A DNA stretch of 64,000 nucleotides. Source: an uncultured Chloroflexia bacterium. GTDB lineage: Bacteria > Chloroflexota > Chloroflexia > QHBQ01 > JADMIH01. The stretch covers positions 221,231 to 285,230 of the forward strand of contig CAWCNY010000005.1 of NCBI GenBank assembly GCA_963797095.1, given 5' to 3'. A program made the translations under genes and the position numbers. Shown piece by piece: positions 4,680-54,601 of this stretch (position 1 is the first letter of the stretch; the number at the start of each line of letters is the position of its first letter). Under the pieces are notes generated by a model. It worked only from the letters and a program-made list of their open reading frames with translations. It was not told the DNA's origin and made no database searches.

Positions 4680-5254
4680 AAGAGCGCGTTGTTGTGATCA
4701 TCACCGGGCTACCGAGCACCGGTAAGACTCATCTAGGGCGCGAGGTGGCGAGCAGGCTTGACCTGCCGTTCATCAACAAGGATGCCATCAAGGAAACGCT
4801 CTTCAACGAACTTGGCTGGAGCGACCGCGAGTGGTCGCGCAAACTTGGCTCTACCACCTATGGCATACTTTATTACCTCCTTGATGCGCTGATGCCTCCC
4901 GGCGTGTCGCTGGTAGTCGAGAGCAACTTCGAGGCCGACAAAGCCGGTCCTGAACTCGCGCAACGGATCGCCAGGCATGGCTACCGTGTTGTGCAGGTGT
5001 TGTGTAAGACCGACGGCCCGACGCTGGTGGAAAGGTTCAAAGAACGAAGCGAATCGGGAGAAAGGCACCCGGGCCACGTGGACAGCCTTGCCGAACTGAC
5101 ACCGAAGTTGTTGAAAGGCCGGATCGAACCGGTCGCGCTGCCCGGACCGCTGATTGAGGTAGATACAACCGACTTCGATATGATAGACTACGACACACTT
5201 GTAGACTCGATTCGCGATGGCCTCGGCAGCCAGAAAGGTGATGTACAGGAATGA
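4676..5254 (+). CDS. P-loop kinase (AAA_33/zeta-toxin-like ATP-binding protein)
   Basis: Walker A GLPSTGKTHLG. Start ATG overlaps the methyltransferase stop (ATGA). The ORF-track start at 4655 is probably too far upstream. Confidence 0.55.
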   Translation: MKERVVVIITGLPSTGKTHLGREVASRLDLPFINKDAIKETLFNELGWSDREWSRKLGSTTYGILYYLLDALMPPGVSLVVESNFEADKAGPELAQRIARHGYRVVQVLCKTDGPTLVERFKERSESGERHPGHVDSLAELTPKLLKGRIEPVALPGPLIEVDTTDFDMIDYDTLVDSIRDGLGSQKGDVQE

Positions 5255-5894: not shown

Positions 5895-7784
5895 GTGAGT
5901 TTCCACATGACGCTCAGTTCCTTTCGTGCGCGCCGCTCTGGTGGCCCGCGTCTCCTCATGGCTTTAATGCTGACGTTCTCTGCCCTGGGAATATTGCTCG
6001 CGCCGATCTCGCGTGCGGGTGTAGCGCAGGCGCAGACTACCCGCGCACGAACCCCCGGAGACGGCGACCTTTTCGGGATCGTGATGCGCGATCCCTTCTA
6101 CGAGTTCAACACCGACCCGGTCAACTATCCGATGCAAGCCAACAAGACGGCCCTGGAAGAGCAAGCGCAGGAGCTTGCGAACGCGGGTGTGCGCTGGGTG
6201 CGCCTGGAGTTCTTCGCCGACTATGACGGCAGCGTACCCGCAGGGGACATCAACTGGGCCAAGTACGACTACTTCATCAACGAGTTGGCCCCCAAGTACG
6301 ACCTCAAGGTGCTGGCCCTCCTGAACGTGGGGATTGTATCGTACGAGGGCCAGACAGTGCGCACAATCGCGTTCAACGACCCACCGGACGGTGCGGGCGC
6401 AGATCCCAACGACGGCTCCAACCACTTCATCCGCGTGTTCCGCGACCGAGCCGCGCAGGTAGCAGCACATTACGGGCATGCGATCAGCGCCTACGAGATC
6501 GTCAACGAACCGAACATTAGCTGGGATCTGTGGCAGGACAGCCACTATATTGAGGCCGAGATCAAATCTGAAAGATATGCAGCGCTGCTGTCGAGCGCCT
6601 ACGAAGCGATCAAGACCGTGGACCCCGACGCGCAGGTGATCACAGGCGGGATCATGATCGGCTCGCCACCCGAAGAACAAGATCGCAATGAGTTTGACTA
6701 CCTGTACGAGCTATATACATCCAAGTGGGTGGCCCGATATAAGTTGGATGGTGGGCCAAACAAACCCGGCTGGAACGTCGTGCCCTGGGACGGGGTGGCC
6801 CTGCACCCCTACTGGATGGACGCGCCAACGCTTTTTGCGCTGATCAACGACTTCTCACGCAAGCTGCGCGACCGCCAGGACTTCAAGAGCAGGCTGTGGA
6901 TCACCGAGGTGGGCGCGCCGGCCGATCCGCCTACTGGGCAGACCGACAAGCCGTCACAGCAGGAGATCGACCAGGCGTACTACCTGCGCGCCATCTACGG
7001 CGGCATCCTGGACAGCGACGAATTGAGCGCCAACGTCGCGCACGTCTTCTGGTTCAAGTACGAGGACTTTGTGCCCGGAGACTACACCCACAACTACGGG
7101 CTGGTGCGCCTTGAGGAGAACGCCACCCATGACGACTACGCACCTTCGGGCAAGGTGTGGGTGCACAAACTGGCATTCAAGGCATACCAGGAGCTTGCGC
7201 TCGGCTACAGCATCACCGACCCCGTGGCGGAAGCGGATGCCCGCGCCCAGAACTTCTTCTACTTCGATGCTACCCACCAGGCCATCGCGCCTCAGTTCGC
7301 CGAATACTGGATCGAGAAGGGGGGGTTAGAGCGCTTCGGCTATCCCATATCGCGCCCCGTGACGATTAAAGGCGTACTCAGCCAGTTCTTCCAACGCGCG
7401 GTGTTCGAGTACCACCCGGAATACGCGCGCACCCCTAACGAGGTGCTACTGCGTCTGGTTGGCAGCGAGCTTGCCGTTGGGCGCAATTTCGCTCCCGCCG
7501 ACAAATCGGTGCTCTCCAGCGACGGAATGTTCTTCCCCGAAACCGGGCACACACTGAAAGACCCATTCCTCACATTCTGGAATGAGCGCGGCGGCCTTGC
7601 TGTGTACGGCTACCCGATCTCCGAGCAGCTTTCGGAACAGGCACCTGACGGCCATATCTACACCGTCCAATATTTCGAGCGTAACCGCCTGGAGTACCAC
7701 CCCGAAGCAGCGGGCACACCCTACGAAGTACAGCTTGGCCTGCTTGGCGCGGCCCTCCTGAAAGAGGACCTCTGGTGGCGCTAG
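5895..7784 (+). CDS. Secreted clan GH-A glycoside hydrolase (GH5/GH39-like) with two C-terminal tandem repeats of about 75 aa (LGFP-like)
   Basis: Signal peptide. Acid/base motif YEIVNEPN and nucleophile motif LWITEVGAP. Two C-terminal repeats containing GG(L)xxFGYPIS...QYFERxRxEYHP...QLGLLG. Confidence 0.7.
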   Translation: MSFHMTLSSFRARRSGGPRLLMALMLTFSALGILLAPISRAGVAQAQTTRARTPGDGDLFGIVMRDPFYEFNTDPVNYPMQANKTALEEQAQELANAGVRWVRLEFFADYDGSVPAGDINWAKYDYFINELAPKYDLKVLALLNVGIVSYEGQTVRTIAFNDPPDGAGADPNDGSNHFIRVFRDRAAQVAAHYGHAISAYEIVNEPNISWDLWQDSHYIEAEIKSERYAALLSSAYEAIKTVDPDAQVITGGIMIGSPPEEQDRNEFDYLYELYTSKWVARYKLDGGPNKPGWNVVPWDGVALHPYWMDAPTLFALINDFSRKLRDRQDFKSRLWITEVGAPADPPTGQTDKPSQQEIDQAYYLRAIYGGILDSDELSANVAHVFWFKYEDFVPGDYTHNYGLVRLEENATHDDYAPSGKVWVHKLAFKAYQELALGYSITDPVAEADARAQNFFYFDATHQAIAPQFAEYWIEKGGLERFGYPISRPVTIKGVLSQFFQRAVFEYHPEYARTPNEVLLRLVGSELAVGRNFAPADKSVLSSDGMFFPETGHTLKDPFLTFWNERGGLAVYGYPISEQLSEQAPDGHIYTVQYFERNRLEYHPEAAGTPYEVQLGLLGAALLKEDLWWR

Positions 7785-7795
7785 TAGTGCGTCAA
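7781..7795. repeat. IS630 left terminal inverted repeat plus TA
   Basis: Exact reverse complement of 9051-9065. Confidence 0.8.
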
Positions 7796-8457
7796 GCGGC
7801 ATCTGATAGGTTCTCGGATTGAAGTGAGGCTTGCACTTGGATGGTTGGATACAGCTTCTTCAGTTTGATACGCGCATCAGCTGTCGTGAAGCGCCATTCC
7901 ACTGTCGCCTTGGCGTTGTTGCGCTCCTCTACCCAGCCGCTCGTTTCCATCCCCAACCGCTCTTGGTCTGCTATTCGCCGGTCCAAACACTGCTTGCTAA
8001 GCACCGATAGCTCGATCTCCGCCATGTTCAACCAACTACCATGCTTGGGTGTGTAGTGGACCTCCAACCTGTTGATGATCCGCCTCGCCTCTTCGGGCTC
8101 AAACACTTCATAAAGTGCGGATAGGTCATGCGTATTCAGATTGTCCATCACCAACCGGATCAAAACGGCATCTGGGAAGTAGGGGTCCACCAACTCACGC
8201 ATACAGTAGGCAAAGTCCACTTTGGTGCGATGCTCCGTTACCACTACCTCTCGCCAGTTCTCAAGACGAGCAAATAACATGAACAGGTTGCTCACACCGT
8301 TACGCACATACTCGTAGTCCACCCTCGCTGGCAGGCCGGGTGCTACCGGTAGGGGAGTGTGGCTCTCCCCGATTAGCTGCTTGCTCGTTTCATCGAGGCA
8401 CACCAGCGGGTATTCAGGATCATAGGGAGCAGTGTACAAATCGAGCACATCTTCCAT
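7792..8457 (-). CDS. IS630 transposase C-terminal DDE_3 part (orfB frame). The frame is open upstream to the A7 run, where a -1 shift would fuse it to orfA.
   Basis: DDE-domain motifs VCLDETSKQ, LVMDNLNTH and SWLNMAEIE. The -1 frame after AAAAAAA reads KKNEIKPWLKEEYCIPPQADADFVYHMEDVLDL, continuing directly into this ORF. Confidence 0.75.
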   Translation of the reverse strand: MEDVLDLYTAPYDPEYPLVCLDETSKQLIGESHTPLPVAPGLPARVDYEYVRNGVSNLFMLFARLENWREVVVTEHRTKVDFAYCMRELVDPYFPDAVLIRLVMDNLNTHDLSALYEVFEPEEARRIINRLEVHYTPKHGSWLNMAEIELSVLSKQCLDRRIADQERLGMETSGWVEERNNAKATVEWRFTTADARIKLKKLYPTIQVQASLQSENLSDAA

Positions 8458-8507: not shown

Positions 8508-8984
8508 TCAGCCATGGCTTGATTTCGTTTTTTTCAGAACAGAGCGCACCGTCTCATGAGAGACCGCATCAACATAGCCAAGTACTGCCAATCTGTCGGC
8601 CAGCAAGCGCAACGACCAGTGCTCTCGCCCGGTGGGTGGAGAGGAGCAGGCCAGGGCGAGCAGGTGAGCTTCCACTTCCCCATCCAGCTTGCGCTCTCGC
8701 CAGCCGGTCGGTCGGCGCTGATGCAAGGCTGCATCCAACCCTTCTTCAACGAAGCGCTGACGGACACGATGAATGGTTTGGCTACCGACATCGTGAGCAT
8801 CTTGGATAGCCTCATCGGTCCAAGCGGGGCCCTGTGGACCGCAACCAGCTTTGAGCAAGATCTGGGCATGGGTACGCACGCGACCAGGAGCGGTGCCAGT
8901 GCGGACCAGTTTGTCAAGTTCAATGCGCTCATCAGCAGTCAGAGTTACAATGTATTTAGCGGGCTTCGGATCGGGTACCTCCAA
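8508..8984 (-). CDS. IS630 transposase N-terminal part (HTH DNA-binding, orfA frame)
   Basis: Typical IS630 N-terminus (paired HTH; LADRLAVLGYVDAVSHETVRSVLKK). Ends with LKKTKSSHG just after an A7 slippery run (minus strand, plus coordinates 8528-8534). Confidence 0.75.
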   Translation of the reverse strand: MEVPDPKPAKYIVTLTADERIELDKLVRTGTAPGRVRTHAQILLKAGCGPQGPAWTDEAIQDAHDVGSQTIHRVRQRFVEEGLDAALHQRRPTGWRERKLDGEVEAHLLALACSSPPTGREHWSLRLLADRLAVLGYVDAVSHETVRSVLKKTKSSHG

Positions 8985-9050
8985 TCAACAGATCTTGAAA
9001 CCATCAGTTGTTGGATTCTACCCGATCCATGCCTGTTTACCACTTCCCAT

Positions 9051-11962: not shown

Positions 11963-12405
11963 TCAGCAATCTCCTTCAAGATGGTGGGCAGGTCCCGCGC
12001 CAGGTTGGAGTTAGCGAGCACTCGCCCCGCGCCCGCTGCCTTCGCCTTGCGTCGCGCCTCCGTGTCCATGTGCGGCCCGAAAGCCACCACGGGTGTGCCG
12101 CGTTGGGCGGCCTCGCGGGTGGTGGTCTCCCAGTCACCGCGCGATGACAGGTCCACTACCAGCACATCGCCGCCCGGCAGGGGCACACCTGGGCGCAGCA
12201 TCACAGGCTTCAGCCCGGCGTGCCGCGCCATGTTCTGAAGTTGCACCCCGAACATCAGGTCGGTGCACAGCAGGACGGCGATACGCTCTCGCGTCGGCAC
12301 GGTTCCATCCAATGGAGTGCCTGCCTCATCCCGGCTGTTGGTGCTTCTCTGGTTAGCGATCTCTGCCACTCGCGTTAGGGTATCAGAATGCCGGTCCAGC
12401 GTCAA
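11950..12405 (-). CDS. Divergent stand-alone CheY-like receiver domain protein
   Basis: Receiver-like pattern: IAVLLCTDL, DVLVVDLSS, VVAFGPH, AKAAGAGRVL. Overlaps the downstream cupin gene by 13 nt. Confidence 0.4.
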   Translation of the reverse strand: MTLDRHSDTLTRVAEIANQRSTNSRDEAGTPLDGTVPTRERIAVLLCTDLMFGVQLQNMARHAGLKPVMLRPGVPLPGGDVLVVDLSSRGDWETTTREAAQRGTPVVAFGPHMDTEARRKAKAAGAGRVLANSNLARDLPTILKEIAEWGK

Positions 12406-14440: not shown

Positions 14441-14821
14441 ATGCGACCGGACCTCACATACTTCCTCGGCAGGCGTGTCACCGTAGTGGTGGATCGCCCT
14501 GTGGGAAGCTATCACCCGCGTTTTCCAGAGGGCGAGCCCTACCCTTTGAATTACGGTTTCGTACCGGGCACGGTCTCTGGTGATGGTGAGCCGGTAGATG
14601 TATATTTGCTTGGACCTCGGGAGCCGGTCGCGCAGGCGGTAGGCACCGTTATTGCTGTAGTGCTAAGAAGTGGCGACGTTGAAGATAAACTGGTTGTCGC
14701 CACGGACGAATACGCGTGCAACACCCCCGAAGCGGTGTGGGCGCAGATAAGCTTTCAAGAGGATTACTTCGACAGCAAGCTTTTCATGCCCGGTACTACG
14801 CACAACTTACCAACACCCTAA
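14441..14821 (+). CDS. Truncated family I inorganic pyrophosphatase-like protein
   Basis: Aligns to the PPase core (YPLNYGFVPGT, DGEPVDVYLLG, DVEDKLVVA) but lacks about 40 N-terminal residues. Length 126 aa. Confidence 0.5.
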   Translation: MRPDLTYFLGRRVTVVVDRPVGSYHPRFPEGEPYPLNYGFVPGTVSGDGEPVDVYLLGPREPVAQAVGTVIAVVLRSGDVEDKLVVATDEYACNTPEAVWAQISFQEDYFDSKLFMPGTTHNLPTP

Positions 14822-14835
14822 CACCAGGAGTAACA

Positions 14836-17328
14836 ATGCAGTTCTCACTAAGATTTGGGCGCATAGGCTCGCTCACTATATATTTCAATTACACGTGGCT
14901 GTTCGCCATCGTACTCGGCCTGTGGTGGCTGGCCCTCCTTTGGCTACCCGACCATCTGCCGGGCTGGCAAGGCCGTTGGTACTGGCTGGATGCCGTGCTT
15001 GTGCTCATTCTATACCTCGTTACATTGCTGATTTACGAGGGCATACACAGCCTTGTGGGGCGCACAGGCCCGCGCAACGCTCAGCTTTACCCCATAGGCG
15101 CGGCCCAACCATTCCGCCTCGACCGGATAGAACCTGGCAGGGGGGTGCTGGCCGCGCTTCTCGCGCCGCTGTTCAATCTGGTGCTGGGCGGTACCCTCGT
15201 GATCCTTACAAGCGGCATCGCCCCCGATGGGGTGTTCACCAATGCTATCAAGGGTCTTTTCGAGCCGTTGGGCTGGCTCAACCTGGCGCTTGGCGTCATC
15301 AACTTCATTCCCGGCATCCCATTCGACGGGGGCTGGGCCCTGAGCATGGGCATCTACTGGTTCAACGGCGACCGCGAATCCGGTATGTCGCTTGCGCGGT
15401 CGGCTGGCGGGTTCGCGGCGCTCGCGTTGGTGTTGTTGGGGGCCTGGCGCGGGCTTACGACTAATTCCTGGGTGGACGCGCTGGCACTTGTGTTCATCGG
15501 GTGGTCCGCAAACGATGCGGGCAATCTCAGCAGGGGGCGGAGCCTCCTTCGGGGCACTTTCAGCGAGCTACATACCAGCGACCTGATGATACCTGTAAGA
15601 GAGAATGACAGCGTACAGGCAAACGAGAGCGTGACAGCTTTGGTCAGAGCCTTCCCGCGCTTCCCGCCGGGCGAGCCTATAGCAGTGCTCGACGACGACG
15701 GCAAGCTAACCGGAGTGGTCACCCTCAGCGCGACGGAGGCTTTGCTACAGGGCAACTGGGCATCCACCCCAGTGCGCTCTATTGCCACCCCATTGGAAGA
15801 GGCGCACGCTCTGCCGCCGGGTGCCTCGCTTAACGACGCCATCGCCCTGTTCGAAGAGCGCCCCGTTGACCAGGATGAAGAGCTTTCCATCCCGATTGTC
15901 GAGGGTAACAAGCTTGTCGGCAGCATCAGCCCATCACGCCTCAACACGTTCGTCGGCGTGGCCGAGCAGTTCGGCGTGGAAGAGACGCTCAACCGGGAGG
16001 CCACAGCGTCTGGCGGGTTGCTTAGCATGCTCGGCAGGGTGCTGCCCGCCATCATTCTGATTACGTTCCTCGCGATCCTGGGTAACATCGCTCTACGGAC
16101 GAATCCGGCAGAGATTCGCGGCTCGACCGACGTGAACACCGAGGCCCCCATCACTTTCAAGAACTTCACCCCACCCGATGATGCCATCGTCGGCCTCGGA
16201 CCCGTTACTATCTCCGTAGAAGCAGCGGGGCCAAGCGAAATCACTACAGCCACGTTGACTCTGGACGGGCAGCCCCTGGACGCGGTAATAAGCGGCGAGT
16301 CGCCTTTGACAAAAACCCTCACCGCCTCGATCCCCGGCGCGACCCTCGGCCTTCACGACATCACAGTCAAGGCCTCGCTGGAGAGCGGCAGATCGAAAAG
16401 CGAGGATTGGCAGTTCCGTGTCAGCGCCACGGGCCAACCCGAAGGCGAGGGGACCCCACAGCCAACGCCCCAACCCACCACGCCTCCTATAGCGCCACCC
16501 GAATTCTCAGGCTTTAAGCCGGTATTGGGAGCGCAGGTGCTGGCCGGAGCCACTGCGGTGCGCGTCGGAGTGGTTGTCACATCCACGCAGCCTATCAGCC
16601 AGGCAACCGTGCTACTCGACGGGCAGGAACTGGCAGCGCAGGTCGCGCCTGTGGCGGGCAACTCCAACTTGTACTCGATCTCAGCAACCGCACCTAAGGT
16701 CGAGGCGGGGACACACAGGCTGAGGGTTGAGGTAAGCGTCGGCGGTGTTTCGGGGGCGACCGAATGGACATTCAATGCCATCACGCCCGACGACAGCAAC
16801 GTCTATTTCGAGCAAACTGGCCATTTCATCTCCGAGCCGTTCCTGAGCTACTGGCAAAACAACGGAGGGCTTGCCATCTTCGGCTACCCGATCTCCGACC
16901 GGATCGTTGAGACGGCGCAGGACACAGGCGAGCAATATATCGCCCAGTACTTCGAGCGCGCCCGCTTTGAAATACACCCGTCCATTGGAGGCACGCTGCT
17001 GTTGGGGAGGTTGGGCGCGCTAATCCACCAACCCGACCCGGCTGTGGATCCGATTGATGGTCAGCAGTACGTCCCGGAAACAGGCCACAACCTGGGAGGG
17101 GACTTCCTGGCGTACTGGAACGCCAACGGCGGCCTTGCGGTATTCGGCTATCCGATCAGCGAAGTGGTTACCGAGACTAACGCGGCTGACGGCAAAGATT
17201 ATCAGGTCCAGTACTTCGAGCGGAATCGCTTCGAGTTGCACCCAGACGCCGACCCCGCCAGCCGGGTGCAGCTAGGGCTACTTGGCGTGGAAATCTACAA
17301 ACAGATTTACGGAACGGGAACGCCATGA
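14836..17328 (+). CDS. Polytopic M50 (site-2 protease)-like protein with degenerate HExxH, CBS pair, extracellular Ig-like domains and two C-terminal LGFP-like repeats
   Basis: RBS aggag upstream of the ATG at 14836; the ORF-track start at 14716 overlaps the upstream gene. YEGIH replaces HExxH. Second M50 motif NFIPGIPFDGGW is present. CBS pair (PIAVLDDDGKLTGVV; IPIVEGNKLVGSI). Internal TM, then Ig-like regions, then 2 LGFP-like repeats. Confidence 0.65.
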   Translation: MQFSLRFGRIGSLTIYFNYTWLFAIVLGLWWLALLWLPDHLPGWQGRWYWLDAVLVLILYLVTLLIYEGIHSLVGRTGPRNAQLYPIGAAQPFRLDRIEPGRGVLAALLAPLFNLVLGGTLVILTSGIAPDGVFTNAIKGLFEPLGWLNLALGVINFIPGIPFDGGWALSMGIYWFNGDRESGMSLARSAGGFAALALVLLGAWRGLTTNSWVDALALVFIGWSANDAGNLSRGRSLLRGTFSELHTSDLMIPVRENDSVQANESVTALVRAFPRFPPGEPIAVLDDDGKLTGVVTLSATEALLQGNWASTPVRSIATPLEEAHALPPGASLNDAIALFEERPVDQDEELSIPIVEGNKLVGSISPSRLNTFVGVAEQFGVEETLNREATASGGLLSMLGRVLPAIILITFLAILGNIALRTNPAEIRGSTDVNTEAPITFKNFTPPDDAIVGLGPVTISVEAAGPSEITTATLTLDGQPLDAVISGESPLTKTLTASIPGATLGLHDITVKASLESGRSKSEDWQFRVSATGQPEGEGTPQPTPQPTTPPIAPPEFSGFKPVLGAQVLAGATAVRVGVVVTSTQPISQATVLLDGQELAAQVAPVAGNSNLYSISATAPKVEAGTHRLRVEVSVGGVSGATEWTFNAITPDDSNVYFEQTGHFISEPFLSYWQNNGGLAIFGYPISDRIVETAQDTGEQYIAQYFERARFEIHPSIGGTLLLGRLGALIHQPDPAVDPIDGQQYVPETGHNLGGDFLAYWNANGGLAVFGYPISEVVTETNAADGKDYQVQYFERNRFELHPDADPASRVQLGLLGVEIYKQIYGTGTP

Positions 17329-17840: not shown

Positions 17841-19930
17841 CTATACTTCAATACCATCCTCATCGTTGCCCATCAATTGCGCGAGCACTTCCTCAGGGTC
17901 GGTGCTGGGGGCCTGGCAGATGTAGTTGCGGCAAATATAGGCGGTGGCTTTACCCTTCACCGCAGGCCGCCCTTCGAGCAACGGCACCTCGCGTGCAACA
18001 TCTTCAGCGCCCGGCTCATAGGCTGCTACTACCTTGTTGGGAGCAAACGGCGTTCTGACTGCCCGTAGCATAGCGTTCATATCATCGTGCCCGAAGTGCC
18101 CCACCAGCGCCACCTCGGCAGCTCCGCCCAGGTAGAAATCGAGCACCGATAGCATACGCCCGAATGCGGTGGGAGCGCGGCCCAACGCAGGAAGCAGAGG
18201 CTTGATGATCCCAAGCGCGTACTCCTCATATTCGGAGTTAGCGGTCAGCAGATAGAGCCGCAAGAGCGCCTCAGCCGCCTCCGAATTGGCCGATGGCGTG
18301 GCGTTATCGTACAGGTCTTTGGGGCGCGCCACCAGGGCTTCGTGATAGTCGGCGGTTGAAAAGAACCCTCCGCTCTTGCCGTCCCAGAAGTGCCCCGTGA
18401 GCAAATTGATCATATGCCTGGCTTCGCGCAGCCATACCGGGTTGAAATCCGATTCATAAAGGGAGATCAGCGCGCTCGCATACGCGGCGTAATCTTCCGC
18501 GAAGGCATCTATGTGGGCGCGCCCGTCCTTATAAGTCCTGTAGAAGCGTCTTTCCCCACCCTTAGCCTCATAGCTCATCGTCTTTAGCACGAAGTCGGCA
18601 TTGGCTGTCGCGATTCGCAGGTATTCCTCATTGTCCAGAAGGGCGGCGGCCTCCGCGAAGGCCCGCATCATCAGCCCATTCCAGCCCATGAGCACCTTAT
18701 TGTCGGTGCCTGGGTGTATTCTCCCGGCTCGTGCCTCATAGAGCTTCTTGCGCCAGCTTTGCACTCTTACATTCAAATCATCAGGGTCGATCCCATTTCG
18801 CTGTGCGAACTCCTCGATAGGCACATCCAGGTGCAGGATGTTGTGCCCCTCGAAGTTGCCGCGCCCGGCCGCATCGTATAACCGGCTGAATAGCTTGCCC
18901 TCTTCCCCGCCGAGTACGGCCACGATCTCGTCGGGGGTCCATACATAGAACTTGCCCTCCACGCCTTCGCTGTCGGCGTCCTGCGCCGAGTAGAAGCCTC
19001 CTTCGGGCGATGCCATCTCGCGGGCAACATAGCTCAACACCTCCTCGGCGATCTGCCTGTAGAAAGGCTTGCCGGTGGCCTGGTATGCCCACAAGTAAAC
19101 CCTGGCAAGGAGGGCGTTATCGTAGAGCATCTTCTCAAAATGGGGCACCAACCACACATCATCCACGGAATAGCGATGGAAGCCTCCCCCCACCTGGTCG
19201 TAGATGCCGCCAAGCGCCATCTTCCGGAGGGTTAGCTCGGCCAGTGCAAGGAGTTCGGTATCGCCGGTGCGCTTCCACTGCTTGAGCACAAACTCGATAT
19301 TCATCGGCTGGGGGAACTTGGGCGCACCCGTTGTTCCGCCGTTCACCCGGTCGAAGTCGCGCAAGAGGTTGCGCACGGCTTCATCAAGCACCGCCACGCT
19401 CGGTTCGTTGCGGGAGGGCGGGAGCTCGCGCCCACCCGACAGGAACTGGCTCAACTCTCTGGCGCTCTGGCCCACGTCGGCTCGGCGCTCGCGGTAAGCG
19501 CGCGAAACCGAGGTGAGGACGCGCGGGAACGAAGTCATGCCGCGCCCTTCCTGTGCCGGGAAGTAGGTGCCTCCGTAAAACGGCTCGCCATCAGGGGTAA
19601 GGAAGACGGTCATAGGCCAGCCTCCCTGCCCGGTCATGGCCTGGATCGCGTCCATGTAGACCGCGTCGAGGTCGGGGCGCTCCTCCCGGTCCACTTTGAT
19701 ATTGACGAACAGGTCGTTCATCAGCGCCGCAATAGCGGGGTTCTCAAACAATTCGTGGGCCATTACATGACACCAGTGGCAGGCCGAATAGCCGATGCTA
19801 AGAAGGATAGGCTTGTCCTCCTCCTTTGCCTTGCCCAGGGCTTCGCGTCCCCACGGATACCAATCGACCGGGTTGTCCTTGTGCTGGAGCAGATACGGAC
19901 TGGTTTCCCCGGCAAGTTTGTTAGGCATTG
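17841..19930 (-). CDS. Thioredoxin-domain protein, YyaL/DUF255 family (N-acylglucosamine 2-epimerase-like six-hairpin C-terminal domain)
   Basis: Starts [16 protein letters not shown]. Thioredoxin-like CHWCHVM. The long six-hairpin glycosidase-like C-terminus is typical of YyaL. The 1010-aa ORF in the track is an upstream run-on. Confidence 0.8.
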
Positions 19931-19939
19931 TTCTTCTCC

Positions 19940-20578
19940 CTATGCAAGCAGACTGAGCAGCGCCACCACCCCAAACCCCAGGATGAGTATACCTGAGATA
20001 CGGTTTACCCACCACAGACCCCGAAGCGTAAACTTCCCCCTCAGCAGGCTCACGCCTCCGCTCAACAGAAGCCACCACAAAGCCGATCCTGTGAACACAC
20101 CAAGCACCAGCAAGGTCGGGGCCAGGTAGTCTCCTCGGGCGCTGGCCAGCCCAAGCCCCGCGAACACCACCACGAATGATAGGATGGTGGTGGGGTTGGT
20201 AAGGGTAAGCGCCAGCGTGGATAGGTAGGCTCCCACCAGCCCCGCCCGGCGGCTGTCGTTCTCGGCTGGAGAACCGGTGGGCCTGGAGATAAACGTGCGC
20301 ACGCCCAGGTACAACAGGAAGAGGCCGCCCACAAGTCTCAGCCAGGCGGCCTGGCCTACCAGGAACGTCGAAATGAAGGTAAGGCCAAAGCCCGCTATCA
20401 ATCCATAGGTGGCGTCGGCGGTGGCCGCGCCCAGGCCCGACACCAGCCCATAAGCGCGCCCCTCGGCCAGCGTCCGCCGGATGCAAAGCACCCCGATTGG
20501 CCCGACCGGGGCCGCGATAGAGAAGCCTATAAGTAATCCGCGCAAGTAAATCCAGGGGTCCATGATTTGGTGTTCCAA
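19940..20578 (-). CDS. LysE/RhtB family amino-acid exporter
   Basis: Six TM segments. LysE signature N-terminus [32 protein letters not shown]. Confidence 0.8.
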
Positions 20579-20585
20579 GTTCCTG

Positions 20586-20620
20586 GTAGTCGGTAGTCGG
20601 TAGTCGGTAGTCGGTAGTCG
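20586..20620. repeat. Tandem heptanucleotide repeat (GGTAGTC) x5
   Basis: Perfect 5 copies in the LysE-AzlD intergenic region. The same unit in opposite orientation occurs x10 at 54602-54671. Confidence 0.9.
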
Positions 20621-20638
20621 GAGGATCCTGGGAAATGG

Positions 20639-20992
20639 TTAGGGGAGGAATCTCCTCAGCAGCCAGACCGACACGACGCCGACCAGCATAGCAAGGAGCA
20701 GGTTCTTCAACCTGGCGGCCACCGCAGCCGTTATCAGCGCGGCCAGCGCCTCGGCCGGTCCTGCCGTTAGCGTGCCCGATTCGCCTCCCGCTTGCGCCCC
20801 CAGCAAGCCCGCCGGCACGATAGTGGGAGCAACAATAGCGATTAGCACGGCGGCGGGTACGTATCGAAGCCATGAGCTTAGCTTTCCCTGGAGCGACGCC
20901 CGGCTCAACAGGAGGAAGCCGCCGATGCGAGTGGCATAAGTTACCGCAGCCATCCCCAGGATCGTCAACAGCACCAGTGGATCAACCGTCAT
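20639..20992 (-). CDS. azlD: Branched-chain amino acid transport protein AzlD
   Basis: Small 4-TM protein. Overlaps the AzlC gene by 11 nt, giving the typical azlCD pair. Confidence 0.7.
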
Positions 20993-21942: not shown

Positions 21943-22806
21943 TTAGCTTTCCCCGGTCAAACCCCTAGCCTTGCCCTCGTCACCGGCGGTTGGATCTATG
22001 GCGCTGCCCACCACCGGAGGCCGCACATCATCACCTCTATCATCTGAATCTTTGGCCTGTTGCACGGCCTGGTCGCCGTCGCCTGTGGTTGGTGGGAGCG
22101 GGGATGTGGGAGGCATGGCTGACAACGACGGTTTAGCATCAGTTGCCGTGGGCGTTGAAGCCCCGGCACTGGAACTCGCCATCGCCATCAGCGACTGCTC
22201 GTCGAGAATTCCCGAGGGTGGATTGTTCGGATCCGAATCCGGCGTGGTCTGGGTCTGTGTCGTGTCGGGTGAAGGCTGCACATCAGGAACAGGCGTGCCC
22301 GACGCCTGGGCAGAGAGTTTGGGGATAGCCTCCATCTTGATAATTACCGCATCAGGTCCGATGCTGACTATATCGCCCATCTCCAGCTCTGCCGAGGCAT
22401 TACGCGCGGTCGGCACGATCTTGCCGCCCACCTCAAGAGTGGTAATGGTGCCGGTGCTCTCATCGAAAAAGACATCTTCCACCTTGCCCATCTGGTCGCC
22501 CGATTCCGTAAAAATATGCTTCCCTACCAGGCTGTCACGGTCGTCCATAATCTCCTTCACCTCGGGGAACTGGTCTACACGTCGCACAGCCTTGCTGTCG
22601 GTAATTACAACGGCGTCCTTGCCGAAACTCACCACATTTTCCATCGCGACAGCAGTAGCCGCCGAGAAGAGGCCGCCCTCATCGAGGATCAAGGCCACGA
22701 TACGCGAGTGATCTTTGCTGATCACGATATCGCGAACCGAATCGAGCCTCTCGCCGTCCATTCGGCTCAGCACTTTCTTACCGATAATGCTCTGTCCTTT
22801 CAGCAT
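21943..22806 (-). CDS. Tandem PRC-barrel domain protein with acidic Pro/Thr-rich tail
   Basis: Two PRC-barrel-like units (GKKVLSRMDGERLDSVRDIVI...; GKHIFTESGDQMGKVEDVFFD...). Low-complexity C-terminus. Confidence 0.7.
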   Translation of the reverse strand: MLKGQSIIGKKVLSRMDGERLDSVRDIVISKDHSRIVALILDEGGLFSAATAVAMENVVSFGKDAVVITDSKAVRRVDQFPEVKEIMDDRDSLVGKHIFTESGDQMGKVEDVFFDESTGTITTLEVGGKIVPTARNASAELEMGDIVSIGPDAVIIKMEAIPKLSAQASGTPVPDVQPSPDTTQTQTTPDSDPNNPPSGILDEQSLMAMASSSAGASTPTATDAKPSLSAMPPTSPLPPTTGDGDQAVQQAKDSDDRGDDVRPPVVGSAIDPTAGDEGKARGLTGES

Positions 22807-30949: not shown

Positions 30950-32239
30950 TCAGGGCCTTAGCAGAGACCACAGATAAAGCGGGCTGAGAGCAGCACGAGC
31001 GTCGGCGAAATCGCCCAACACCCCGGTCAGCACCTGCCGGGCATCCTCGCGTCTTCCAAGCCTGGATACTACATAGTCCATAGCAGGAGGCATTCCTACG
31101 AAAAGTTGAACAAGCCTGCACACCATGTCCTTGGCAGTGAATTCGGCGCGTCGCGCCCTGCTGTAGCGGCTCAACGCGCGGGCCGACACATCGTCCTTAT
31201 CAAGCGCAGCGGAGGCCACATCAGCGGCGATCTCAGCGCCACGCAAAGCCTTGTAAACCCCCTCGCCCGTGAACGGGTCGAAGAACCCCGCCGCGTCTCC
31301 AACCAGCATCCATCCATCACCATGTACTCGCTTCACCCTCGCGCCTATTGGCCCAACTCCGCGCACCTCGCTCATCCGGGCAGCCCCGCGCAGACGCTCG
31401 CCCACCCCTTGGAAGCTATGCGCGAAACGCTCGAACCGCTCAACCGCGCTTCCTCCCGCGAACTGTTTCGCCTTCCTCATTGGCATCACCAACCCGACAT
31501 TGAGGAGGCCGCCCGATTGGGGGGCAAGCCCCGCATAACCGTGCTTCGACACATAGATCTCGCCCCAGTCGTCCAGGCCGCTATACCCGCTGTAATGGGC
31601 CACCATCCCCAGGTTCTGCGGCCACCTCAGCGGCGCGCCCACTCCCAGGCTGCGCACCGCCGCCGAATGAACGCCGTCGGCCCCTATCACCAATCTTGCT
31701 CTGATCTGGCGGGTGCCGCTTGACCGCTCCCTGTACACCACGCCACCTACCCTGCCATCTTGCAGCGTGACCCCCTCCACCCTGACCCGCTCACGCACTT
31801 CCGCGCCACACTGCCGTGCAAAGTCCACCAGCGTAGCGTCCAGCACGCGCCGCGTGGTGGCAAGCACCTGCATTTGCGCGCCACGTTCGTTTCGATTGAG
31901 CGCATAATCCATGGCGAACGACCTGCCCGAAGGGCTGATCACCCGCATCGACCCCAGGCGGCGCGCCCCCGCACGTTCCACCATCTCCAGCGCCCCAATT
32001 CGCTCCAACACCCGTTCCGTCTGGGGACTTGTATACTCGCCGCAAGCCTTATCTCTCGGAAATACCGCTCTGTCGAGAGCAAGCACCGAGTACCCGGCAC
32101 GCGCAAGCAAGGCTGCCGTCGTTGAGCCCGCCGGTCCTGCTCCCACAACCACCACATCGTAGGTCTGTGTATTTGCGGTTGAGCCTGTGGTGCTGTCCAT
32201 CCTCTGCCAACCCCGATCAGTTATCCCCCGAAACGTCAA
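30950..32239 (-). CDS. Geranylgeranyl reductase family FAD-dependent oxidoreductase
   Basis: FAD motif YDVVVVGAGPAGS. GGR-family motif PRDKACGE. LVGDAAGFFDPFTGEG. Confidence 0.75.
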   Translation of the reverse strand: MTFRGITDRGWQRMDSTTGSTANTQTYDVVVVGAGPAGSTTAALLARAGYSVLALDRAVFPRDKACGEYTSPQTERVLERIGALEMVERAGARRLGSMRVISPSGRSFAMDYALNRNERGAQMQVLATTRRVLDATLVDFARQCGAEVRERVRVEGVTLQDGRVGGVVYRERSSGTRQIRARLVIGADGVHSAAVRSLGVGAPLRWPQNLGMVAHYSGYSGLDDWGEIYVSKHGYAGLAPQSGGLLNVGLVMPMRKAKQFAGGSAVERFERFAHSFQGVGERLRGAARMSEVRGVGPIGARVKRVHGDGWMLVGDAAGFFDPFTGEGVYKALRGAEIAADVASAALDKDDVSARALSRYSRARRAEFTAKDMVCRLVQLFVGMPPAMDYVVSRLGRREDARQVLTGVLGDFADARAALSPLYLWSLLRP

Positions 32240-32963
32240 AGCCCGAATACCGAACCGCCGCTACGCGCCAGAATGGGTGGGTGTAAATCTTCAGCGGAAT
32301 CCCCGCGTTGCGGGCGATCCTCCCGATCTCGGCCGGTGTGAACGCCCTGTAAACTGAGGCTGGCCCATCGTGGTGCGTGAGCTTGTTCGGGGTCGTAAGC
32401 CGCGCCAGCACCCATGCCATGTACCACGCGCCTTGCGAGCGGTAGATGTCGTTCACGATGAACCCCAGGCGCGACATCCGCTCCATCTCCTTCATGACTT
32501 TGTGTGCCGCCCCCAGGTCGAAGTGGTGGAATGCAAGGGAGCAGGTAACAACATCAAACGAAGCATCGGCGAACGGAGGCGAGACCGCGTCGCATACGAC
32601 AAACTCGACCGCATCCGTGAAGCCCGCCCTGTTAATACGGTCAGAGGCTACAGCCAGGATTTCGGGACTTATGTCGGTGGCCGTAACCTCGATCTGACGC
32701 CCATTCTTACGCGCCCAACGGCACAACTCCTCCGGAATGTCTGCTGAGCCTGTCGCCAGGTCGAGCACCTTCAGCGTCTGCCCCTCAGGAAATGGGCCGA
32801 TCAAGTGCCGAAGGTGATACTTGACGACCCAGGTGCCGAGTCCGAAGATGTTAGCACGCCGGATGTCTCGCAGGGTCTCTTCCAGGTCATGCGCACTCGC
32901 CTCGCCCGGCCTGTCAAGCAATTCCTGAACATCAAGATACCGGGGCGTTCGGAAGATGCGCAT
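32217..32963 (-). CDS. Class I SAM-dependent methyltransferase (UbiE/MenG-like)
   Basis: Motif I VLDLATGSADIP and post-I acidic residue. Overlaps the GGR gene by 23 nt. Start taken at MRIFRTPRYL (32963); the ORF-track extension to 33053 translates heptamer repeats. Confidence 0.6.
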   Translation of the reverse strand: MRIFRTPRYLDVQELLDRPGEASAHDLEETLRDIRRANIFGLGTWVVKYHLRHLIGPFPEGQTLKVLDLATGSADIPEELCRWARKNGRQIEVTATDISPEILAVASDRINRAGFTDAVEFVVCDAVSPPFADASFDVVTCSLAFHHFDLGAAHKVMKEMERMSRLGFIVNDIYRSQGAWYMAWVLARLTTPNKLTHHDGPASVYRAFTPAEIGRIARNAGIPLKIYTHPFWRVAAVRYSGFDVSGDN

Positions 32964-32984
32964 GGGCCATTGTACCAGAAACGG

Positions 32985-33075
32985 GGAGGAAGTAACGAGT
33001 GACGAGCGACGAGTGAACATTGCGTGCTGCATACTTCGTACTGCGTATTCCAAGGCTCACTCGCCACTAGTCACT
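32985..33075. repeat. Heptamer-based (GAGTGAC/GCGAGTG) imperfect inverted repeat hairpin between the HD gene and the methyltransferase
   Basis: cgagtgacgagcgacgagtga ... tcactcgccactagtcactcgcc. Confidence 0.6.
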
Positions 33076-33919
33076 CGCCACGTTCCAGCCAATCGCGCGC
33101 CAGCCATTCGGCCCGCGCCACATCGTCGTGGCGCAGCCTCCCCGCCTCCACCTCGCCCAACAAATAGCCCTTTAGCGCGGCAATCCAGGGTCCAGGCTCG
33201 CGGGCCGCCAGTGCCAACAGCTGATTACCGTTGAGGGGCGAGCGGGGTTCGCTCACGCGCGCTTGCTCCTCGCGCTGAGATTCATCTTCTAGCCGTTGGG
33301 CATGGGCCTCAAGGCTATCAAGCACCCACAAACCGCGGTCGATAGGCTCAGGCAGGTAGCCCCTCAGGTCGGCCCGGGCCAGCGCCAGTAGGTCACGCCA
33401 GCCCGCTTCCCCGCGCCCTTCCTCTGCTTCGTCCTTCAACCGCCGCACCGCCGCGCCGGTCCACTCGCTGCTGTACGAGATCGGCCTCATGTGCAGCGAC
33501 ACCAATCTCTGCACCGGCTCTATGAGGGCTGGGTCTGCACCGGCAGCCTCCATTATCTCAGGCGTCATCTCAGCGCCGAACCTGTCGTGCTCAAAGAATC
33601 TGGAGCGCCCCTCCGGCGTCTCGAGGTAGGCCGGGCCCTTGCCTATATCGTGCAGCACAGCAGCCCACCGCCTTATCGCCGTAGGCTCAATCGCGTCTAC
33701 CACCTTCAACGTATGAACGAGCGCATCACCTTTGTGCGCCGGAAGCTGCGATACGCCCTTGAGCGCCGCCAGGTCGGGGAACACGTCCCGCAAATGCCCT
33801 GTTTGCGCCCAGCGCCACAGCACGTCCGAAGGACGCCCAGACAGCAGCACATCGTGCAATGAAGGCTCAGGCTCGGCAGGACTATCGTCACCGTGCCGCC
33901 TGCGTAGAAAACGAAACAT
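33071..33919 (-). CDS. Stand-alone HD domain protein related to the C-terminal half of CCA-adding enzyme/poly(A) polymerase
   Basis: HD motif AAVLHDIGKG. tRNA-NT C-terminal-like PLNGNQLLAL. Confidence 0.6.
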   Translation of the reverse strand: MFRFLRRRHGDDSPAEPEPSLHDVLLSGRPSDVLWRWAQTGHLRDVFPDLAALKGVSQLPAHKGDALVHTLKVVDAIEPTAIRRWAAVLHDIGKGPAYLETPEGRSRFFEHDRFGAEMTPEIMEAAGADPALIEPVQRLVSLHMRPISYSSEWTGAAVRRLKDEAEEGRGEAGWRDLLALARADLRGYLPEPIDRGLWVLDSLEAHAQRLEDESQREEQARVSEPRSPLNGNQLLALAAREPGPWIAALKGYLLGEVEAGRLRHDDVARAEWLARDWLERGE

Positions 33920-36927: not shown

Positions 36928-37081
36928 ATACAGGCTACCTTCGTCTCCAACTTTTGGGAGAGAAGTACCACTGGCAGAGTGACCTCGAAAAGCCGCGCGT
37001 AATGTATAATCGGAACGAGTCGCCACTCTAAGGCGCTCATCTCTATGTAGTGCTCACTAATTCCGTGGGTTTTCGAAAGGC

Positions 37082-44956: not shown

Positions 44957-45012
44957 AACTATCGCACCGGAAACCAGGAACTAAGAGCTAAGAACTTGGA
45001 ACCAGGCCCTAC

Positions 45013-47300: not shown

Positions 47301-47340
47301 TGATCACCCCCACTGTTTCGACGCGATGCAACCTGTAACT

Positions 47341-47410: not shown

Positions 47411-47460
47411 TTTCATTCGTTGGCAAACCGCGATCTGCCAACTGGTGGTTCAGGATCCTA

Positions 47461-48960: not shown

Positions 48961-48993
48961 GAGTGGTTGGTCTGGCGCTACGCGCACATGCCT

Positions 48994-51754: not shown

Positions 51755-51787
51755 CTACCCCATTTCACACCTCGGAGAAACATAACC

Positions 51788-53050: not shown

Positions 53051-54517
53051 CTACGACCTCAGCGCCTTCGCTAGCGCTCCGGTTCCGCGCCTCGCCGACG
53101 CAATACGCTCCCGTTGCTCAACGATCCAGTGCGAGTGCTTACCCAGCGCGCTCCGCCTCGCCTCAAGCATCCTCGCCATCTCGTCGGGTGCTGCACCTCC
53201 CACGTGCTTGCGCTTTGTGACGGCCCACTCAGGATCAAGGGCCTCTCGCACCTGCTCCTCACTAACCTCGATCTTCACGCCAACCGCCTCCGCGCCCGCT
53301 CTTATCTGCTCGGCGGTTATGCTGTGAAGCGGCCTCCCCTCCTCGATCATCGCGTCCACTATCCGGCCAACGATGCCATAAACTTGCCTGTACCCGACCC
53401 CGCTCTGCTGCGCGACGACGTCCGCAAGGTCCGTGGTGCTCGAATAGTTGTCCCGTACCGCCTGCAACATCCGCTCCCGGTTCACCGAAAGGGTGGACAG
53501 CGTCGTGCTCACAGTAGATAGAGCCGCCAGCGTCTTGTCAAAGCCGAGCGCCGTCCACTCCTTGATCTCCCGCGAGTCCCGGTTATAACCCATCGGCAGC
53601 CCCGCGAGCAGGTGGCCAGCCGTTGCCGCTATCCCTATAACCTCCTGGCCCGTGGCCCGCAACAACTCCAGCGCGTCAGGGTTCTTCTTCTGCGCCATCA
53701 CCGAGCTACCCGTGATCGGGTGCAGACGCTGCGCCACCGCCTCCCCCAATTCGATATATCCGTACTCCCAGGTGGTAAAGAGCAGCAAATCGGCGACCAT
53801 CTTGCTAACCGTAAGCGCCAACCGTTTGCACACGTCCAGGTAGGCCAGTTGAGGCAGCCCACGCGACCCAATAACGTCCTGCGGCACCTCCCAGACCCTC
53901 CCAAACCCCAGCAGTTGGGCAGTAAACTCCCTATCTATCGGCCACGAAGTGCCGTAGCTCTCAACCGCCCCCAGCGGGCAGGTATCGTACTCGTCCCATG
54001 TGTGTTCGATATCCGAGAGGCTGCGCGCAATCGCGTCCGCGTACCCAAGCGCCCACTGTCCGAGCGTAGTAGGCTTGGCGGGCTGCATATGCGTATATCC
54101 GGGCATCACCGTCCCAACGTGCTCCTCGACCAGGCCCAATAAGGCCCCCACCACCCCACACGTAGCCCTCGCCAGCGCCAGCGCCCGCTCCCGCAAAAAG
54201 AGCATTTCCGTCACCATCACCTGGTCGTTGCGGCTCCGCGCCGTGTGCATCCGGCTGCCGTCCTGCACCCCCGCCGCCTCGATCACCGCACGTTCCAGGC
54301 TAAGTTGTGCTCCCCGCTCCGGGTCGATCCGAAACTCCCCAGCCTCCACAGCCCCCTCGACATCGTCCAACGCTGCCAGTATCGAAACCGCCGCCTGCGC
54401 AGGAATGATCCCGACATGCTGTAGCATCAAAACATGGGCCAGCGTGCCCCAGATATCGTACCGAAGCATCTCGGTATCAAGCGCCACCTGGGCCGCGCTA
54501 ACGATAAAACCGCCCAT
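53051..54517 (-). CDS. argH: Argininosuccinate lyase
   Basis: Fumarate-lyase signature GSSVMAQKKNPDALE. Start taken at MGGFIV (54517); the ORF-track N-terminal extension translates heptamer repeats. Confidence 0.85.
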   Translation of the reverse strand: MGGFIVSAAQVALDTEMLRYDIWGTLAHVLMLQHVGIIPAQAAVSILAALDDVEGAVEAGEFRIDPERGAQLSLERAVIEAAGVQDGSRMHTARSRNDQVMVTEMLFLRERALALARATCGVVGALLGLVEEHVGTVMPGYTHMQPAKPTTLGQWALGYADAIARSLSDIEHTWDEYDTCPLGAVESYGTSWPIDREFTAQLLGFGRVWEVPQDVIGSRGLPQLAYLDVCKRLALTVSKMVADLLLFTTWEYGYIELGEAVAQRLHPITGSSVMAQKKNPDALELLRATGQEVIGIAATAGHLLAGLPMGYNRDSREIKEWTALGFDKTLAALSTVSTTLSTLSVNRERMLQAVRDNYSSTTDLADVVAQQSGVGYRQVYGIVGRIVDAMIEEGRPLHSITAEQIRAGAEAVGVKIEVSEEQVREALDPEWAVTKRKHVGGAAPDEMARMLEARRSALGKHSHWIVEQRERIASARRGTGALAKALRS

Positions 54518-54522
54518 CTCCA

Positions 54523-54557
54523 GATTTTGGATTTTGGATTTTGGATTTTGGATTTGA
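54523..54557. repeat. Tandem heptamer repeat (GATTTTG) x4.9 immediately upstream of the argH start
   Basis: gattttg gattttg gattttg gattttg gatttga. Confidence 0.9.
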
Positions 54558-54601
54558 CCCGTCATAATATCACTCGTCACTCGCCGCTCACCATTCACCC
54601 T

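Follow-up and report, generated by a model that had tools for sequence, protein, structure and literature searches.

Heptanucleotide repeat arrays and predicted hairpins in operon spacers of an uncultured Chloroflexia bacterium

Heptanucleotides are the commonest class of long simple sequence repeats (SSRs) in most bacterial genomes, according to the summaries of Mrazek (2007) given in PMC4679880 and PMC4692102. As a reason for this preference, the same two summaries mention the length of DNA held by the polymerase, and a hypothesis of slippage has been put forward. Several arrays of tandem heptamers are present in a 64,000-nt stretch of DNA from an uncultured Chloroflexia bacterium (assembly GCA_963797095.1, contig CAWCNY010000005.1, positions 221,231 to 285,230 of the forward strand), which is referred to below as the window. 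These arrays are a fresh instance of a kind of heptamer repeat already known from many bacteria, Chloroflexus included. An earlier note on this DNA had considered such arrays classically cyanobacterial and hence unusual here, a view that is contradicted by the heptamer excess documented in many phyla, including that of Chloroflexus aurantiacus. The repeat families are interpreted here, with moderate confidence, as slippage-driven microsatellites resembling the short tandemly repeated repetitive (STRR) sequences of cyanobacteria, the hairpin forms of which are probably intercistronic elements for mRNA processing or stability.

The arrays share with the long SSRs of the Mrazek class a length beyond chance, the dominance of heptamers, an intergenic location and slippage as the proposed origin. 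Repeat units with lengths other than multiples of three are excluded from coding sequence in that class, and the window arrays likewise lie in spacers or at gene termini, apart from one chance-level two-copy match. The class is defined statistically and is blind to sequence, whereas the units found here form a small repertoire that is common to relatives and enriched in GTC/GAC.

The canonical units of STRR1, STRR2 and STRR3 are CCCCAGT, TTGGTCA and CAACAGT, respectively, and these also contain GTC when read in tandem. To our knowledge, no function has been assigned to the cyanobacterial STRR since 1990. No two-copy match to the STRR1-3 units was found in the window. The earlier description of the arrays as STRR-like holds for their architecture (tandem heptamers, non-coding, few families), but membership in STRR proper fails on both the unit sequence and the host. 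As in the STRR of heterocystous cyanobacteria, tandem heptamers belong to few dispersed families, are non-coding and often lie inside operons. Unlike STRR, they occur in a Chloroflexota host, and many of the elements are inverted pairs that form predicted hairpins.

Within the same phylum, C. aurantiacus contains 22 satellites derived from (GATAGRA)n, the largest bacterial satellite family in the survey concerned (PMC6749651). These are likewise heptamer-derived and scattered through the genome, but they constitute a single family with another unit, whereas several families and hairpin pairs occur in the window. In Xanthomonas, GGGAATC arrays at a given gene pair differ from one sister species to the next and are sometimes found as inverted pairs (PMC4692102), and heptamer repeats near start codons change reporter output in Nostoc (bioRxiv 10.1101/2022.06.06.494920). 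The window arrays resemble Xanthomonas GGGAATC and Nostoc GGGGAYT in being intergenic heptamers, in the variation of copy number and sequence among related species at shared gene pairs, in the occurrence of inverted pairs and in a high-GC, non-cyanobacterial host. The Xanthomonas and Nostoc units are G-rich and form G-quadruplexes, whereas the window units GGTAGTC, GACGAGT, GGACGAA, GATTTTG and AACCAGG contain no runs of three or more G. TAACTGA repeats are found in marine Beggiatoaceae, cyanobacteria and Bacteroidetes, and a post-transcriptional role has been proposed for them (PMC4679880). There too, heptamers adjoin start codons and stop codons within the unit limit the overlap with open reading frames (ORFs); TAACTGA is a single unit found mostly in one orientation upstream of starts, whereas several units in both orientations occur here. 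No arrays of GATAGRA, TAACTGA, GGGAATC or GGGGATT were detected in the window.

A transcribed (ATCTTTC)n array in Haemophilus influenzae hmw forms one arm of a long 5'-untranslated hairpin that is processed by RNase III and is required both for expression control and for change in repeat number (PMC12721329). The inverted arrays of the window are likewise predicted to be arms of long hairpins and, to judge from their operon context, would be transcribed. They differ from the hmw element, which lies in the leader of a phase-variable adhesin and has a non-repeat second arm, in that both arms are arrays and lie between housekeeping cistrons.

The repetitive extragenic palindromic (REP) sequences of enterobacteria and their mosaics (BIMEs) are dispersed, transcribed, intercistronic hairpins without a U-tract, which have one consensus and are associated with the RAYT transposase. 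The classic case is malE-malF, where the REP stabilizes the upstream message for the substrate-binding protein. Three strong predicted hairpins of the window likewise lie in operon spacers, and that at 47353-47410 occupies a malE-malF-type position. Their arms, built of tandem heptamers from several families, set them apart from REP/BIME. A Pfam search of the window proteins gave no Y1_Tnp match.

Heptamer arrays of the window

Arrays were detected with Tandem Repeats Finder (TRF) and by an exact-match scan of the window. Every heptamer array that the earlier note had listed was recovered by these means, some with slightly shifted coordinates. The arrays are as follows.

20585-20621, plus strand: (GGTAGTC)x5.3, a 100% identical direct array
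32995-33013: ACGAGYG x2.7, GAGTGAC family
44971-45005, plus strand: degenerate five-unit array AACCAGG AACTAAG AGCTAAG AACTTGG AACCAGG, within a lag-7 region at 44966-45006
47355-47380: (AAGGACG)x3.7, placed about 10 nt away (47344-47366) in the earlier note
51690-51718, plus strand: (TGACGAG)x4.1, 95% identical
54523-54555, plus strand: (GATTTTG)x4.7, 100% identical, 33 nt; the transcript would carry (CAAAAUC)n
54570-54590, plus strand: CACTCGY run of about 2-3 units, GAGTGAC family, previously placed at 54577-54590
54602-54673, plus strand: (CCGACTA)x10.3, a 100% identical direct array, the reverse complement of the GGTAGTC unit
63373-63389, plus strand: (AACCAGG)x2.4, directly abutting the next array
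63389-63403, plus strand: (CACTCGT)x2.1, GAGTGAC family

The AACCAGG copies at 44972 and 44999 are the two ends of the five-unit degenerate array. Inverted partner arrays at 47387-47411, 51728-51750 and 33051-33080, and a degenerate (TGCGTAC)x3.9 array at 33021-33047, were absent from the earlier list. Each array of at least 2.1 copies is intergenic or gene-terminal, as had been claimed; the sole exception in location is a two-copy TGGCCCG match at 53646, which is at chance level.

The arrays are longer than the composition of the genome predicts. Near-perfect lag-7 self-matches were found in seven regions, compared with 0.07 in dinucleotide shuffles, and a looser lag-7 scan returned six regions versus 0.06. 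The near-perfect scan gave no regions for periods 4, 5, 8-11 and 13 in the window, two for period 6 and three for period 12, the last two comprising coding-type repeats only. Of the perfect arrays with at least three copies, four had period 7 and a single one had period 4. After masking of the strong arrays, the residual lag-7 autocorrelation showed only a slight excess; the non-coding mask was contaminated by missed genes, and this result was not used. The units are contiguous and 7 nt long, in contrast to the 24-48-nt repeats with unique spacers of CRISPR.

The units of the window fall into 5-7 classes of about 1,170 possible classes and are not independent draws from them. Within the 64 kb, GGTAGTC is present at two loci, separated by 34 kb, GAGTGAC at 4-5 loci and AACCAGG at two; the proposal that few families recur at several loci is thus borne out for GGTAGTC and GAGTGAC. 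Two GAGTGAC hairpin arms (in the 32992-33081 element and at 51685-51712) are 89% identical over 28 nt, flanking bases included, and the loops of same-family hairpins differ. The two GGTAGTC arrays are opposite relative to transcription, antisense at 20585 and sense at 54602. The messages of azlD-lysE and of the arg genes would therefore share a 35-nt stretch of perfect complementarity, through which they might interact in trans.

Operon spacers and predicted folds

The GC content of the window is about 60%, and the closest matches to its proteins come from uncultured Chloroflexota/Chloroflexia metagenome-assembled genomes. Pfam annotation, which covered essentially all large ORFs, shows ordinary housekeeping genes. 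The heptamer elements sit in seven gene-to-gene spacers, all but one of which are flanked by same-strand genes of housekeeping operons. Spacers were folded as RNA in the sense orientation, with z scores calculated against shuffles (200 for the arg spacer). The spacers and their hairpins are as follows.

20585-20621, genes on the minus strand: array in the 75-nt spacer between azlD (stop 20639) and a lysE-type translocator gene (ATG 20563), both with Pfam matches (AzlD, LysE)
32992-33081, minus strand: composite hairpin of GAGTGRC/GYCACTC arms (32995-33016 and 33051-33080) in the spacer that separates an HD-domain gene from a methyltransferase gene; 32985-33090 folds at -55.2 kcal/mol, z -6.9
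44971-45005, operon on the minus strand: array in the 56-nt spacer that separates the gene for the second permease from that for the ABC ATPase
47353-47410, minus strand: hairpin of (AAGGACG)x3.7 at 47355-47380 and (TTCGTCC)x3.7 at 47387-47411, in the spacer between the gene for a Bmp substrate-binding protein and the first permease gene; 47340-47425 folds at -40.1 kcal/mol, z -6.1
51690-51752, plus strand: hairpin of (TGACGAG)x4.1 and inverted CACTCGY units at 51728-51750, between metX-like and metY-like genes (metY-like ATG 51788); 51685-51760 folds at -40.0 kcal/mol, z -5.4
54523-54673, genes on the minus strand: arrays in the 149-nt spacer between the N-acetylornithine carbamoyltransferase gene (argF') and argH
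63373-63403, plus strand: arrays in the 49-nt convergent spacer between Wzy-like and EF-G genes, two bases from the EF-G stop

The elements take two forms: direct arrays, for which no structure is predicted, and inverted array pairs, which are predicted to form long hairpins with stems of about 23-33 bp. No other local inverted repeat in non-coding window DNA is as strong as the three heptamer hairpins. The loop of the 32992-33081 hairpin contains the (TGCGTAC)x3.9 array. The 149-nt arg spacer, in which the CACTCGY run lies between both long arrays, is less stably folded than 198 of its 200 shuffles (z +2.25); the azlD-lysE spacer is predicted to be unstructured (z -1.0), and no significant fold was obtained for the spacer with the 44971-45005 array.

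Intrinsic termination was considered for the heptamer hairpins and ruled out, because no U-tract follows any of the three. Canonical U-tract terminators are used elsewhere in the window, and one is located past the EF-G-side arrays at 63348-63321 on the minus strand.

The upstream stop codon lies inside a repeat unit in three cases (TAG 54669, TGA 51697 and TGA 33071). The carbamoyltransferase TAG (54669-54671) is formed by repeat sequence at the 54673 end of its array, the metX-like TGA (51697-51699) falls in the second repeat unit of the (TGACGAG)x4.1 array, and the stop of the HD-domain gene (33071-33073) falls within one hairpin arm.

The met operon (aspartokinase, metX-like and metY-like genes) is headed by a SAM riboswitch at 48859-48961 on the plus strand (80.7 bits, Rfam), with its terminator at 48994-49012. 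The arg operon is headed by a full-length T-box leader upstream of argG at 58215-58456 on the minus strand, which scored 81.4 bits, under the Rfam gathering score of 93, with an E value of 5.7e-18. A terminator-like hairpin follows the T-box leader at 58230-58201. The leader is about 71-77% conserved in relatives, and a second copy occurs upstream of carA in one of these (L121). The SAM riboswitch and the T-box were the only Rfam matches in the window, with nothing at the arrays. Since the operons carry these 5' regulators, the array spacers are expected to be co-transcribed, and they very probably form parts of polycistronic mRNAs. The azlD-lysE mRNA (minus strand) would then contain (GACUACC)n from the 20585-20621 array, and the arg transcript (minus strand) would read (UAGUCGG)10 from the 54602-54673 array.

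The 5' end of argH requires separate consideration. The GATTTTG array (54523-54555) lies between an in-frame upstream ATG at 54565 and an internal argH ATG at 54517. Translation from ATG 54565 gives MTGQ-IQNPKSKIQN-LEMGGFIVS, and the ArgH proteins of relatives begin with MTQATLESAAFIVS. The new internal ATG at 54517 stands in place of a conserved Ser codon. To judge from this alignment, the (CAAAATC)4.7 array seems to sit within the former or current 5' coding end of argH, and would be either a 5' leader or an 11-codon in-frame insert. Several N-terminal ORF extensions had been dismissed as translated arrays; those of 17841..20873, 53051..54598, 51710.. and 32217..33053 are indeed spurious, but the argH extension may in part be genuine coding sequence.

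Relatives and orthologous spacers

Orthologous loci were obtained via the flanking proteins, and related or scan-found loci in other genomes are labelled with L-numbers. A scan of metagenomes for relatives of the carbamoyltransferase gave eight short loci only. The only same-species contigs (L117, L118 and L119) were 100% identical to one another. Among relatives with about 70-80% amino-acid identity, some genomes are rich in heptamers and others poor, in a patchy distribution. The period-7 share of TRF rows was 10 of 27 in the window, 13 of 23 in L117, six of eight in L126 and 13 of 24 in L194, and heptamer arrays were also present in L124 and L191. The heptamer-poor relatives L120-L123, L125, L192, L193 and L195 had none or one array.

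The spacer between the Bmp protein and permease genes was found in two relatives. In L194 (80% identity) it contains an inverted (TGCGGAA)4.4/(CATTCCG)3.9 hairpin (-59.9 kcal/mol, z -6.7), in the heptamer-poor L195 an ordinary GC-rich hairpin without heptamers, and in the window AAGGACG arms. By these predicted folds, the spacer appears to keep its position and fold while the arm sequence is replaced.

At the argF'/argH junction of L117 and L118, the two genes adjoin or overlap each other. In L124, degenerate GGTCAGT/GGTCGGT units immediately follow the stop codon, and in L126 (GGGGTCA)4.1 and (AGTAGGC)3.4 lie within a few bases of the stop. L126 also carries CAATCCAAAATCC immediately before the argH ATG, which resembles the (CAAAATC)n of the window. 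The units AGTCGGT (window), GGTCGGT (L124) and GGTCAGG (L126) are one or two bases apart, as point mutation followed by homogenization would produce. The azlD-lysE spacer of L191, where YyaL is 80% identical and the gene order is kept, contains (AATACGG)x5.9 (6.9 by TRF) from the azlD stop. The next spacer of L191 contains CCGACTA, CTGACAA and two copies of TTCGTCC, units known from the window and L117.

Several unit families are common to genomes: TTCGTCC (window, L191, L194), TGCGTAC (window, L117), GTCAGGG (L117, L126), AGTTGTC (L117, L017, L033, L194), CGTAAAA (L117, L194) and GACGGTA (L017, L194). Among the window, L117, L124, L126 and L191, five protein-ascertained and heptamer-rich loci, three shared classes were counted in 211 class pairs, with about 0.2-0.4 expected. 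In the window, L117, L124, L126, L017, L033, L191 and L194, GTC/GAC occurred in 37 of 56 arrays and, at loci not found through the GGTAGTC query, in 12 of about 21 unit families, where about 20% was expected in each case. Many units of these Chloroflexota loci match GTC(A/G)G(T/G)N. Across all phyla, no GTC/GAC enrichment was seen after the exclusion of query-like units (1.1-fold), and GTC-containing units showed no orientation bias to transcription (seven sense versus 13 antisense).

Rarity outside cyanobacteria, which the earlier note had assumed, is not observed: (GGTAGTC)3 was found in more than 116 stretches of the genome collection with 29-74% GC, from hosts that include Acidobacteriota, Bacteroidota, Chloroflexota, Planctomycetota, Cyanobacteria, Actinomycetota and Proteobacteria. 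The GGTAGTC stretches, 816 kb in all, contained 324 period-7 arrays, 143 with the query unit and 181 with other units, compared with 19 arrays of period 8 and 38 of period 6. Because of this period-7 excess with other units, genomes with one array tend to carry many. In viral contigs, GGTAGTC was found in five stretches, whereas the same-composition control heptamers GGATGCT, TGGCGTA and GGTGTCA were found in 16, one and 39, respectively, the control counts being far over a rough chance estimate of well under one. GGTAGTC was therefore rejected as a special, horizontally shared unit, since same-composition control heptamers form arrays too. The control scans also weaken the inference of horizontal transfer that was drawn from the sharing of TAACTGA across phyla.

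Further elements were noted in these loci. L194 (ERZ25039588 contig_283) contains strong heptamer-armed hairpins at 4916-5016, 12143-12262, 20800-20890 and 21970-22050, with energies of -76.1, -59.9, -49.3 and -50.8 kcal/mol and z scores down to -13.5; that of -76.1 kcal/mol lies in an EF-G/Wzy spacer, and that of -50.8 kcal/mol fills the E1 alpha/beta spacer. In L114, found by the GGTAGTC scan, two consecutive intercistronic spacers at 4480-5020 each contain a (GTCGTGG)n/(CCACGAC)n hairpin that spans the interval between the stop codon of the upstream gene and the Shine-Dalgarno site of the next, with differing loop sequences. A dispersed conserved core, CTCTGCGGTGAAT(CCGTAAATCC), is located between or beside inverted heptamer arrays in L117 (5404-5426 and 7243-7265) and L191 (2575-2587) and is absent from the window. 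This arrangement suggests that core and arrays form a composite MITE-like (miniature inverted-repeat transposable element) unit in L117 and L191. At 1016-1043 of L117, (GGCGGTC)x4.0 lies inside a called 486-aa gene that joins FAD-binding and 2Fe-2S domains, which are separate subunits in many bacteria; the array could have caused either a fusion of two genes or an error in gene calling.

Explanations for the arrays

According to the favoured explanation, the arrays would lengthen, shorten and homogenize via slipped-strand mispairing, and inverted copies would arise, or stay matched, probably by template switching. Growth and homogenization by slippage are suggested by the perfect long arrays and by the one- or two-base unit differences at orthologous sites. 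Since 7 is not a multiple of 3, arrays would be tolerated only in non-coding spacers or dispensable gene ends, where they often provide the stop codon. Direct arrays would give unstructured spacer RNA, whereas inverted pairs would give hairpins that most likely serve as RNase III targets (a substrate of at least 20 bp) or as barriers to 3'-exonucleases. By analogy with REP hairpins and the hmw leader, these hairpins would set the relative expression of neighbouring cistrons. The earlier note had proposed a structured-repeat system with mRNA stability or phase variation among its roles; an mRNA-level role is plausible for the inverted pairs, but phase variation is unsupported, as the arrays occupy spacers between housekeeping cistrons. 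The strongest individual argument for function comes from the hairpin that follows the binding-protein gene, which is kept with different heptamer arms in two genomes and as a non-heptamer hairpin in a third.

Several points weigh against this explanation. The lack of any spacer at the argF'/argH junction in several relatives indicates that at least that element is dispensable, and the complementarity of arms can be maintained by quasi-palindrome correction alone, without selection. Moreover, plain slippage does not explain the small repertoire of units at unlinked loci and across relatives, the GTC/GAC bias (57-66% versus about 20% expected) or the all-or-nothing distribution among close relatives.

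Alternatively, the arrays may be neutral or selfish mutational by-products, microsatellites that occur wherever selection allows, with the hairpins as a side effect of inverted duplication. This reading is rather unlikely. It is consistent with the fast turnover of units, the missing arrays at orthologous junctions of several relatives, the lack of orientation bias and the readiness of arbitrary same-composition heptamers to form arrays, and a pure polymerase-slippage hypothesis is among the proposals outlined in PMC4679880. It accounts poorly for the Bmp/permease hairpin with replaced arms and its non-heptamer counterpart in a heptamer-poor relative, for the persistence of arrays at two more orthologous junctions across about 75-80% amino-acid divergence, and for the limited unit repertoire common to genomes.

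A dedicated lineage-specific activity (polymerase, nickase, recombinase or repeat-binding protein) that writes or maintains arrays with a preference for GTC(A/G)G-type units is doubtful. Such an activity would explain the strict 7-nt period, the small repertoire common to related Chloroflexota, and the presence or absence of arrays on an all-or-nothing basis in genomes whose proteins differ by only about 20-30%. It would also explain why both arms of a hairpin are replaced in concert in orthologous spacers.

It is improbable that the arrays are multivalent sites for a sequence-specific RNA- or DNA-binding protein in a lineage-wide regulatory network. The HutP antiterminator binds period-7 UAG-N4 sites and provides an analogy, and (UAGUCGG)10 matches the UAG-N4 pattern. 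A network of this sort was proposed for the TAACTGA repeats of Beggiatoaceae (PMC4679880), and the reporter effects in Nostoc (bioRxiv 10.1101/2022.06.06.494920) point the same way, as do the few families at many loci and across relatives, the enriched GTC(A/G)G-like core of the Chloroflexota-locus units and the proximity of arrays to stop and start codons. GGTAGTC, however, is found in both orientations to transcription, as are GTC-containing units overall; the 64-kb window alone contains at least 5-7 unrelated units, the units of orthologous spacers differ, and no candidate binding protein was identified.

Equally improbable is an origin of the arrays as traces or components of an element that moves or is written by an enzyme, whether REP/MITE-like via a transposase or produced by a template-directed polymerase at breaks. 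The common flanking bases of the two GAGTGAC hairpins, the inverted arrays around the CTCTGCGGTGAAT core in L117 and L191, the limited repertoire and the patchy richness among close relatives, as if a factor had been gained and lost, would fit such an origin. Against it, Pfam searches of the window proteins revealed no reverse transcriptase, Y1/RAYT transposase or other plausible enzyme. The arrays are not bordered by target-site duplications or conserved termini, the window lacks the core, and same-family loops differ. The only mobile-element gene of the window encodes an IS630-type DDE_3 transposase fragment (221 aa, 7792-8457, minus strand), which is far from every array. A 26-nt imperfect inverted repeat is located near this ORF at 8968-9028.

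Phase variation, in which unit gain or loss at contingency loci would switch flanking genes, is very improbable. A heptanucleotide SSR acts in this way at H. influenzae hmw (PMC12721329), and a one-unit change in the 33-nt GATTTTG array would shift the frame from the upstream argH ATG, but the internal ATG at 54517 would keep argH expressed at any array length. The flanking genes are housekeeping genes (arginine and methionine synthesis, transporters, EF-G), and the arrays lie outside promoter spacers and the ORFs of surface genes, the GATTTTG array at the argH 5' end being the only ambiguous case. Although the source is a metagenome-assembled genome, an assembly artefact or chance pattern has a negligible probability given the lag-7 excess over shuffles, the 72-nt length of the longest array, the recurrence of units within the window and in relatives, which argues against a local artefact, and the presence of similar elements in relatives that were assembled independently, as well as in many published genomes.

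Two features of the window apart from the arrays were recorded. A comEC-like competence gene (DUF4131 and Competence domains) is split into overlapping ORFs at 35408-36181 and 36123-37031 on the plus strand, which could reflect a frameshift, a pseudogene or a sequencing error. A coding repeat (...YW..NGG...FGYPI... / QYFER.R.EYHPE) with a spacing of about 270-285 nt occurs at 7295-7750, 16829-17250 and 39048-39520, in three large proteins (5895-7784, 14716-17328 and 37082-39556) that otherwise have little or no Pfam annotation.

The interpretation of the families as slippage-driven microsatellites with probable intercistronic mRNA elements bears on a question posed since 2007, namely why bacterial genomes prefer 7-nt repeats and whether these repeats act. 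For genome annotation, arrays create false N-terminal ORF extensions and can provide stop codons or in-frame inserts. This Chloroflexota clade may serve as a comparative test bed, in which heptamer-rich and heptamer-poor genomes are closely related, spacers keep the array or hairpin while swapping the unit, and the operons are simple housekeeping operons with known 5' regulators. Two ideas are thereby made testable: that the hairpins are intercistronic RNA elements, and that a genetic factor lies behind heptamer richness.

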